Virus record (IMG/VR): IMGVR_UViG_2698536339_000020
DNA: 4,046 nucleotides
From: a virus
Lineage: Duplodnaviria > Heunggongvirae > Uroviricota > Caudoviricetes
Strand: one strand, 5' to 3'
Each line of letters opens with the position of its first letter. The stretch's first letter is position 1. The notes beneath the pieces were generated by a model, which had not been told where the DNA came from, searched no databases, and was given only the letters and a program-made list of their open reading frames with translations. Shown here piece after piece: positions 1 to 1,011 of this stretch. The position numbers were made by a program, and so were the translations under genes.

Positions 1-540
1 ATGAATCCGTTTAACGCCATTACTTTTGCTGCATTGTGCGGGCCTCTGGCTTGTCCTGCTGCTATGGCGCAGGAGTTCATCATCCAGCCAGCCCCTGTGA
101 TTGCTAAACCTTTTGAGTACTCTCCTTCTGTTGAGGAATTCTCACGCAAAATGGAAGAGGGTAAGGAGATCTTGCAAAAGTTAACAATTGCAGCAGATGA
201 CTACTATATCTGTTTGATTGATCTTAATAGCCAAGATGCTCGCGAGTTTGTTTCCAAAAACGGGACAGATACGACAGAGGCATGCGAAATGTTCCTGCGT
301 GCTTTTGAAGAAGAAGTGAAGCGTACAATTGAATCGCCTCTACCTGAATTTATCAGGTCAGAACTGAAGGTTTACTGGCGTCATATTGCTAAAGCTCGCT
401 CATCTGTCACTCGCCTTAACAATTACATAAAGAGCATATTTAAAGAAACTGTTACTTTTAGCGGGCGCGCGGATCTTGCTGGAATTGCAGCACTAGCTAG
501 TCACACATCAAATAAGCTAAAATCGATGCAATTTCACTAA
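1..540 (+). CDS. Hypothetical protein with hydrophobic, signal-peptide-like N-terminus; candidate partner of the downstream YafO-family toxin; may be 5'-truncated by the window edge
   Basis: Frame is open from nt 1 (ATG) to TAA at 538-540. The N-terminus MNPFNAITFAALCGPLACPAAMA is an uncharged hydrophobic stretch ending in an AxA-like AMA; no K/R n-region is visible, so the true start may lie upstream of the window. The remainder is charged and helix-like. No family recognised by eye. The stop is 16 nt before the next gene start, suggesting one operon. Confidence 0.6.
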   Translation: MNPFNAITFAALCGPLACPAAMAQEFIIQPAPVIAKPFEYSPSVEEFSRKMEEGKEILQKLTIAADDYYICLIDLNSQDAREFVSKNGTDTTEACEMFLRAFEEEVKRTIESPLPEFIRSELKVYWRHIAKARSSVTRLNNYIKSIFKETVTFSGRADLAGIAALASHTSNKLKSMQFH

Positions 541-556
541 CCGATAGCGGACGGCC

Positions 557-991
557 ATGCATCTAGAAGTCTCTATTAATCCAGAAACTAGAGCTGAATT
601 TTTTGATGAAGTTTTTCTCAAATTCCCGGAGCTAGAGTCTTCTATCATTGATGATTTCAAGAGATACAAAGCAACCGGTGAGCTTCCGCACTATTTCGGT
701 AGGGACGTTGCGTATACTCAGCCTTATGGTGCTTTTCGGGCTGGGTTGATGCATATCCATCTTTGTCTACCGCCAAACAAGTTTCCCGAGAAACTTCCAC
801 AACCGGATAGGGTCTGCAAGAAAGGTGATCCTGATAATGATGCTTGTCTTGTGTATGTCCAAGGTGAGCTTTATGAGAATAAATATTCACTCATTGCTAT
901 TATGTATCCCGATGCACATGAAAAAGCAAGAAAACATGATGTGATGAGCTATCTGGCGCGAATTGCCCAGAATTATAAAGATGAAAACTAA
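557..991 (+). CDS. Type II toxin, YafO family (ribosome-dependent mRNA interferase-like)
   Basis: The 144-aa translation carries the blocks I recall from E. coli YafO: YK(A/R)(T/D)GxLP..FGRD..Y, then HIHL followed by a proline-rich stretch (LCLPPNKFP), then D-A-x-LVY-x-QG, then LIAI..P(D/E)(A/P)H(E/K)(K/L)AR. ATG at 557 is the only start before residue 65; the upstream SD is weak (GGA). TAA at 989-991 is followed immediately by a terminator hairpin. Confidence 0.8.
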   Translation: MHLEVSINPETRAEFFDEVFLKFPELESSIIDDFKRYKATGELPHYFGRDVAYTQPYGAFRAGLMHIHLCLPPNKFPEKLPQPDRVCKKGDPDNDACLVYVQGELYENKYSLIAIMYPDAHEKARKHDVMSYLARIAQNYKDEN

Positions 992-1011
992 CCCGCCGAA
1001 GCGGGTTTTTT
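991..1011. terminator. Rho-independent terminator, probably bidirectional, between convergent genes
   Basis: Perfect 6-bp stem ACCCGC (991-996) / GCGGGT (1001-1006) with loop CGAA, followed by T-run 1006-1011 on the plus strand. An A-rich stretch AAAACTA (984-990) gives a partial U-tract for the minus-strand transcript. It sits in the 26-nt gap between the plus-strand stop (989-991) and the minus-strand stop (1018-1020). Confidence 0.75.

Follow-up and report, generated by a model that had tools for sequence, protein, structure and literature searches.

In Escherichia coli K-12, the toxin YafO and the antitoxin YafN are encoded in the chromosomal SOS operon dinB-yafNOP, with the antitoxin gene first, the toxin gene second, and close spacing between them. 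Leplae et al. (2011; PMC3141249) noted that the partners of YafO toxins include both Phd-type antitoxins and untested 'guilt-by-association' proteins, and a survey of E. coli lists 13 partner clusters for the YafO_toxin family, with only 8% known (PMC10790755). In surveys of Pseudomonas prophages, a 'YafO toxin' is listed without an antitoxin (PMC10449497). The YafO toxins of prophages are routinely reported as the toxin alone or with unknown partners (PMC10449497, PMC10790755, PMC3141249), and a toxin-antitoxin survey of Photorhabdus (PMC13617665) contains no usable detail on YafO partners. Here, we describe a two-gene cassette located at the start of a 4,046-nucleotide stretch of caudoviricete DNA (IMG/VR virus record IMGVR_UViG_2698536339_000020; hereafter, the window), which is composed of a partner gene (open reading frame 1; ORF1) and a YafO-family toxin gene (ORF2). 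The toxin belongs to a known type; neither the partner family nor its constant pairing with this toxin has been described, and we found no paper describing the partner family in the literature searched.

Compared to YafN-YafO, the ORF1-ORF2 pair shares the toxin Pfam family (36% identity between ORF2 and K-12 YafO), the invariant His, Arg, and Gly positions that are common to both toxins, the gene order, and the close spacing. The two systems differ in the partner, because ORF1 is unrelated to YafN, twice as long, predicted to be all-helical, and lacks a Phd/YefM-type domain while having a signal-peptide-like start. They also differ in location, with ORF1-ORF2 residing in a mobile prophage cassette rather than in a chromosomal operon. 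Relative to generic type II modules, adjacent, co-directional, tightly spaced, and co-inherited genes are the shared features, whereas a recognised antitoxin or DNA-binding domain is missing from ORF1.

ORF2 and the YafO family

A preliminary description of the window, made from the sequence alone, had assigned ORF2 to the YafO family. Profile searches of both proteins bore this out, with ORF2 matching Pfam PF13957 YafO_toxin (E 1.9e-21; 76.5 bits, gathering cut-off 25) over profile positions 1–100 of 101. Against the NCBIfam equivalog model of K-12 YafO (NF007377), ORF2 scored 75.8 bits, which is under the cut-off of 153, implying that it is a family member or paralogue and not the orthologue of K-12 YafO. 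The residues that are invariant in 28 YafO-family sequences, including K-12 YafO, are all kept by ORF2 (F34, P44, F47, G48, P56, H66-I67-H68, Q82, and R85, and further along the protein L98-V99-Y100, G103, P118, and H121). The structure model of ORF2 was very confident and its structural matches were solely to RelE/HigB/YafQ-type toxins; the PDB sequence search gave no match, nor did ORF2 match any defence model of PADLOC-DB 2.0. Based on these sequence and model comparisons, ORF2 belongs to the RelE superfamily, in its YafO branch, and looks intact.

ORF1 and its family

In the full prophage, an in-frame TAA is present 39 bases 5′ of the ATG at position 1 with no start codon in between, showing that the window start is the real gene start of ORF1. 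The protein matches phrog_8416 (E 3.9e-86), a family of unknown function and the only one in which ORF1 was found, in line with the earlier suggestion of an undescribed partner. Pfam and NCBIfam provided no match at E ≤ 0.1. The upstream protein had been described as unlike YafN, RelB, or Phd, and we likewise found no antitoxin family match, no similarity to K-12 YafN (BLASTP E 1.7), and scores of about 3 bits or less when the YafN sequence was compared to the partner-family profiles. A word-indexed search of 5.8 billion proteins returned 22 homologues of ORF1, and a profile search of 1.84 billion proteins returned 23 representatives of the family at E ≤ 0.001.

The AlphaFold2 model of ORF1 (mean predicted local distance difference test score 76.5) is composed of an N-terminal helix (residues 6–24), a disordered stretch (25–43), and a helical bundle (44–175), with the N-terminal helix detached from the bundle and modelled at low confidence. 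Searches of the PDB with this model returned thousands of generic helical-bundle matches, none of them specific, and searches of viral structures returned nothing significant; the PDB sequence search gave only a weak match (2jpu, E 0.029). Positions R100, E103, R127, A130, R133, L165, and A166 are conserved family-wide. Taken together, the sequence searches and the predicted model suggest that ORF1 is the founding example of an undescribed family of helical proteins without a known antitoxin fold.

The last codon of ORF1 (window 535–537) encodes His179, an invariant C-terminal residue in an F/L-H ending in 22 close homologues. A C-terminal His recurs in gp17 of phage HK639 and in the Klebsiella plasmid-prophage protein (see below), and is not found in the Pseudomonas or Halomonas forms. 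The GenBank record of phage PhiR40_1 labels ORF1 (222–761 in that record) as a 'YafM antitoxin', a name for which we found no support, given that all other sources call the protein hypothetical. The yafM gene of K-12 is unrelated. PhiR40.1 and PhiR55.1 serve as test phages in a paper that is silent on both the cassette and the 'YafM' name.

Pairing and co-inheritance of ORF1 and ORF2

To compare gene neighbourhoods, loci were sampled from ORF1 homologues (Phytobacter, Pantoea, Serratia), from ORF2 homologues too distant for sequence detection of ORF1 (Yersinia, Photorhabdus, Gilliamella), and from phage records (HK639, two Pseudomonas phages, and the Klebsiella plasmid-prophage), together with pattern scans that covered a single genome for each species (29 loci) and IMG/VR (80 loci). 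Within the genome and phage set, an ORF matching the ORF1 profile was located directly upstream of the toxin gene on the same strand in 41 of 41 loci (175–258 aa by longest possible start, mostly 175–205 aa). The IMG/VR set gave the same result for all 67 loci with enough upstream sequence, the other 13 of 80 being cut at the toxin start. Thus, an ORF1-family gene lies directly 5′ of the YafO gene in 108/108 usable loci, at distances that range from a 29-base overlap to a 35-base gap and include the 1- and 4-base overlaps typical of translational coupling; this co-conservation is one of the features that the preliminary description had proposed to examine. The usable loci span E. coli, Pantoea, Serratia, Yersinia, Photorhabdus, Gilliamella, Pseudomonas, and Halomonas, and the Pseudomonas phages with a reported 'YafO toxin' also carry an ORF1-family gene upstream of it. 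In the Klebsiella plasmid-prophage, the toxin is 31% identical to ORF2 and the upstream 205-aa protein is still recognised by the family profile (E 1.4e-8 in a search of three sequences) and shares an F-x-F-H C-terminal motif.

The pairwise identities of partner and toxin correlate with each other (Mantel r = 0.59, a value reached in 0 of 2000 permutations), with mean values of 22% for the partners and 47% for the toxins, so that the partner is diverging about twice as fast. An antitoxin that diverges faster than its toxin is the usual pattern. The toxin of K-12 is paired with YafN although it is as close to ORF2 as some of the toxins that are paired with ORF1-family proteins. These comparisons show that the ORF1 family is a fixed, strictly co-inherited partner of a mobile YafO clade across Gammaproteobacteria. 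Two individual loci stand apart. A cassette in a metagenome-assembled genome labelled Phycisphaerae (Planctomycetota) resembles the Pseudomonas forms, which may mean bin contamination. At the Halomonas olivaria locus, the toxin match covers residues 26–144 only with no intact toxin ORF called, and the gene may be disrupted.

A signal-peptide-like N-terminus in ORF1

The hydrophobic N-terminus that had been noted in the 179-aa upstream protein corresponds to an uncharged stretch of 24 residues. Its Sec-signal-peptide anatomy, which is the most unusual feature of ORF1, had been missed: Pro is found at −5 and Ala at −3 and −1 of a predicted cut (AMA/QEF) after residue 23, with an acidic residue next. 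Using a crude, home-made heuristic rather than a trained predictor, we called a signal-peptide-like start in 31 of 41 partners and in 0 of 41 toxins. An A-x-A-type site recurs at the same position in divergent partners (AMA/Q, ALA/E, TLA/Q, VLA/R, ALA/H), in which the sequence differs and the layout of a short, often positive start, a hydrophobic core, and the A-x-A-type site is kept. Some distant partners carry textbook signal peptides, for example MKTTLSICAAALSMALSSPNVLA cut before RE, and the n-region of the E. coli ORF1 is without positive charge. From these heuristic scans, we infer Sec export of ORF1 as a possibility, and such an export-like signal would be odd for an antitoxin.

The signal-like N-terminus is not universal. 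It is missing or degenerate in the Halomonas/Vreelandella clade, in HK639, in the P. putida/brassicacearum clade (degenerate), and in the Klebsiella plasmid-prophage pJN2-26 (partner gene at 874–1491), and these clades still keep the tight YafO pairing. The Halomonas partner protein begins MITATHNLLVQHLLDVAF, and the codons in frame immediately ahead of its Met translate as W-E-V, a protein-level reading that would correspond to a GGAGG-like ribosome-binding site. Among close relatives, residues 1–32 are the best conserved part of ORF1, with 83% identity over residues 1–24 compared to 37–68% elsewhere, and the first 24 codons (window 1–72) show a synonymous codon identity of 0.63 compared to about 0.43 elsewhere. 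Such high conservation is unusual for a signal peptide.

Other classes of N-terminal signal were considered for ORF1. A lipoprotein reading was rejected, as no canonical lipobox surrounds Cys13 or Cys18 and most relatives have Gln in place of Cys18, and a twin-arginine translocation (Tat) signal was rejected, as there is no arginine in the N-region of the E. coli form.

A self-contained, mobile prophage cassette

The DNA of the window forms the left end of a lambdoid prophage of E. coli. Upstream of ORF1, and outside the window, a promoter-like element (TTGACC or TTGCTC, 17 bases, then TAGACT or TAAACT, within TATAGACT/TATTAGACT) is located 82–54 bases before the window start and a GAGGTTG ribosome-binding site about 10 bases before it; both are conserved in E. 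coli, Phytobacter, Pantoea, and Enterobacter, and partly in Yersinia. On the other side of the pair, a hairpin separates the two convergent stop codons (RNA fold z = −3.0). After it comes TTTTTGTG on the + strand, whereas the T-run that follows it on the − strand is weaker. The hairpin closes the cassette and probably also ends the transcript from the PrtN/xis side, consistent with the earlier proposal that the pair is convergent to a PrtN/Xis-like gene and shares a terminator with it.

The cassette occupies varied prophage sites. In E. coli and Phytobacter, it is found at the end of the prophage and adjoins xis (in Phytobacter alongside a Gp49/HTH_37 pair). In Serratia, it separates the tail-chaperone genes from the tape-measure gene; in a P2-like prophage of Yersinia, it accompanies ParDE and is flanked by the tube and tape-measure genes. 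It precedes the baseplate genes in Photorhabdus, and in Gilliamella it is located between the tail-fibre and lysis genes. In phage HK639, gp17-gp18 is the same pair, here between tape-measure and minor-tail genes. This placement is like that of the HK97 gp15-type tail-region genes of lambdoid phages, which also form a self-contained accessory cassette between tail genes. In HK97, superinfection is blocked by one membrane protein, gp15, whereas the ORF1-ORF2 cassette carries a predicted cytoplasmic RNase toxin.

The slot next to the PrtN-like xis gene varies in content between related phages. In the sister phage PhiR47_1, it is occupied by PanA-PanT (308–1352; Panacea domain PF13274, E 5.9e-18), which has the identical position between the prophage end and xis, the same orientation, and the same two-gene layout as ORF1-ORF2. 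The two pairs differ in that ORF1 lacks the SocA_Panacea domain, ORF2 is a predicted RelE-fold RNase and not PanT, and no PADLOC match exists for our pair. Phage mEp460 has an integrase and two hypothetical genes in the same slot. Given that its contents vary among the ORF1-ORF2 cassette, PanA-PanT in PhiR47_1, and the Gp49/HTH_37 pair alongside in Phytobacter, the slot behaves like a hotspot for toxin-antitoxin or defence cassettes. A Pfam scan of the flanking genes of five Pseudomonas, Halomonas, and Carnimonas loci gave mostly no matches, and prophage context is therefore not established for these five.

The region is thus a self-contained prophage accessory cassette composed of a predicted promoter, ORF1, ORF2, and a terminator (Table 1). 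The conserved promoter-like element and ribosome-binding site, the terminator, the varied prophage sites, and the presence of PanA-PanT in the same slot agree with its initial characterisation as a 'moron'.

Between the −10-like element and the ribosome-binding site, 29–44 bases 5′ of window base 1, E. coli has a dyad (AATAGC-TAAG-GCTATT), the symmetry of which is kept with other bases in Pantoea (GATAAC-ACAA-GTTATC) and in Ca. Pantoea multigeneris (TAAGC-GG-GCTTA). This dyad could be an operator or a hairpin of the 5′ untranslated region. We also considered an RNA antitoxin (type I or III) and rejected it: there are no tandem repeats, the 16-base spacer leaves no room, and no Rfam match exceeded the threshold, the sole match being to isrK (19.6 bits, cut-off 50) over the terminator.

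Table 1 Position of the cassette features and of the adjoining gene in the window
Feature	Position	Strand	Description	Basis
ORF1	1–540	+	179 aa, ATG start; partner in antitoxin position, undescribed family	phrog_8416, 'hypothetical protein'
ORF1 codons 1–23	1–69	+	signal-peptide-like segment MNPFNAITFAALCGPLACPAAMA, then QEF	heuristic scans
ORF1-ORF2 spacer	541–556	+	16 bases; bicistronic, no room for another gene or promoter	ORF coordinates
ORF2	557–991	+	144 aa, ATG start; YafO-family toxin gene, RelE/BECR fold, putative mRNA endoribonuclease	ORF list, Pfam, model
Intrinsic-terminator hairpin	990–1007	both	AACCCGCCGAAGCGGGTT; G+C-rich, between convergent stop codons	7-pair stem with 5 G-C pairs, loop of 4
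PrtN/excisionase-like neighbour	1018–1317	−	outside the cassette, at the end of the early-left operon	PF11112 PyocinActivator/PrtN, E 4.4e-24; phrog_1300 'excisionase'

Distribution, prophage boundary, and neighbouring genes

The temperate phages PhiR40_1 and PhiR55_1 are 99.8% identical to window bases 1–1320. At least 80% of these bases are present in 48 of 5426 complete E. coli genomes, with 99.7–99.9% identity in the best of the listed matches. The identical ORF1 protein occurs on at least 1000 contigs and the identical ORF2 protein likewise on at least 1000, and the 90%-identity clusters of both proteins contain members from E. coli, Salmonella, Citrobacter, and E. albertii. The cassette of strain 23CRST032 is about 200 bases within the prophage boundary, adjoining a dusA fragment, and is followed at its 3′ side, on the opposite strand, by the PrtN/xis-like gene and then the early-left operon (exonuclease, yfdS, yfdR, yfdQ, yfdP, and repressor). 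Many IMG/VR viral contigs begin exactly at the ORF1 ATG and 13 begin exactly at the YafO start codon, showing that the window start reflects a prophage-boundary call and not biology. Automated boundary calls cut through or just before the cassette, and the true prophage end is about 200 bases further out.

The RefSeq coordinates of the PrtN-like neighbour are 1018–1290, and its mEp460 homologue is annotated as an excisionase. Further into the window, a 103-aa ORF (1899–2210, − strand; phrog_2531, function unknown) has a strongly hydrophobic N-terminus of 33 uncharged residues with the top hydropathy in the window; inside this stretch, the annotation of strain 23CRST032 places a fragment of a DUF551 pseudogene (1899–2138). 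The gene at 2203–2724 (− strand) encodes a phage DNA methyltransferase according to PHROGs (phrog_954, E 7e-89), falls below the Pfam methyltransferase cut-offs, and overlaps both adjacent genes by a few codons.

A probable toxin-antitoxin-like cassette and its alternatives

As a whole, we read the locus as a toxin-antitoxin-like cassette with a new partner family, an interpretation that we hold to be probable though by no means assured. It is based on the position of ORF1, the coupling of the two genes, their co-inheritance without exception, the more rapid divergence of ORF1, and the presence of neighbouring toxin-antitoxin pairs. The YafO-family, RelE-fold identity of ORF2, the movement of the cassette as a unit between prophage sites, and its conserved promoter-like element and terminator also speak for it. 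By homology with K-12 YafO, ORF2 would arrest translation by cutting mRNA, and ORF1 would most likely use its helical domain to bind ORF2 and keep it silent in the cytoplasm. Both genes are probably expressed in the lysogen, where the pair may serve either to exclude other phages or abort their infection, or to make the cell dependent on its prophage. The gene anatomy, the family and predicted fold of ORF2, the lack of a known antitoxin domain in ORF1, the strict co-inheritance, and the promoter-like and terminator elements are what the analysis shows; export, toxicity and its neutralisation, and a role in defence or addiction are what we infer. With respect to the N-terminus, our preferred explanation is that the Sec-like signal would make unbound ORF1 short-lived in the cytoplasm via export or membrane insertion, in which case export would take the place of the degradation by Lon or Clp that ordinary antitoxins undergo. 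It is doubtful that the partner is truly a Sec substrate, such that export and not proteolysis sets the lifetime of the neutraliser, or such that export failure or envelope disturbance in phage attack switches the YafO RNase. The toxin-antitoxin-chaperone (TAC) systems, with their SecB-like chaperone, provide a conceptual parallel for an export-coupled antitoxin, by analogy only. TAC is the only established case known to us that links export machinery to antitoxin stability. It relies on a third gene for the SecB-like chaperone and on an aggregation-prone C-terminal tail on a cytoplasmic antitoxin, whereas ORF1-ORF2 comprises two genes with the signal on the partner.

Several observations weigh against the toxin-antitoxin interpretation. 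Family searches found no ribbon-helix-helix (RHH), helix-turn-helix (HTH), AbrB, Phd, RelB, or Panacea antitoxin or DNA-binding domain in ORF1, which, along with the generic helical-bundle matches, fits the earlier view of the partner as non-canonical and also means that the usual antitoxin autoregulation is not evident. The length of 179 aa and the predicted export signal are unlike known type II antitoxins, and a partner that is actually exported would be unable to restrain a toxin in the cytoplasm. Because several clades lack the signal-like N-terminus, it is not essential to the core function. Finally, the search of ORF1 against PADLOC-DB 2.0 gave a single match of 13 bits (E 0.017), which is not meaningful, and with neither protein represented in the PADLOC models a defence role is without direct support.

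Alternatively, ORF1 may be truly exported, as a periplasmic or membrane-tethered protein that does not neutralise by stable binding, and the pair would then be a sensor-effector or export-coupled system in which envelope or Sec status, as when an infecting phage disturbs it, controls the RNase, or in which ORF1 acts in the envelope on its own account. The signal anatomy, the recurrent position of the A-x-A site in divergent members, the restriction of signal-like starts to partners, the textbook signal peptides of distant members, and the detached, low-confidence helix in the model are all consistent with this. We nonetheless regard it as unlikely, given that after cleavage no ORF1 would be left in the cytoplasm to contact ORF2, that several clades keep the pairing without the signal, and that the signal prediction is heuristic. 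The converse, in which the pair is an ordinary type II system of the cytoplasm and its antitoxin has a new fold, would turn the hydrophobic N-terminus into a toxin-binding or oligomerisation helix. The strong conservation of residues 1–32 among close relatives, rare behaviour for signal peptides, argues for such a helix, as do the lack of positive N-region charge in the E. coli form and the non-hydrophobic N-terminus of some clades. However, distant members change the sequence yet keep the layout, which is how signal peptides and not binding helices evolve, and an uncharged stretch of 20–27 residues is unusual for a soluble interface, making this explanation distinctly unlikely.

It is highly improbable that the locus is not of the toxin-antitoxin kind at all, with the YafO-like RNase serving as a regulated factor for phage or host mRNA processing and ORF1 as its cofactor, or with the RNase held in check in trans, for example by host YafN. 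The score of ORF2 below the K-12 YafO equivalog cut-off, which marks it as a non-orthologue, is compatible with such a role. Nevertheless, the family-invariant residues are intact in ORF2, the slots are shared with bona fide toxin-antitoxin pairs, and the occurrence of the cassette in Pseudomonas and Halomonas makes dependence on an E. coli-type YafN implausible.

Under the toxin-antitoxin-like interpretation that we prefer, ORF1 provides annotators with a new family of antitoxin candidates for YafO toxins, and experimenters with a compact cassette in which phage exclusion can be probed, with PhiR40.1 and PhiR55.1 already in laboratory use. If the export signal is real, this would be, to our knowledge, the first example of a cytoplasmic RNase toxin whose neutralising partner is directed to the Sec pathway. 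Should the partner prove to be a true Sec substrate, the cassette would couple a cytoplasmic RNase toxin to the condition of the translocon or the envelope.

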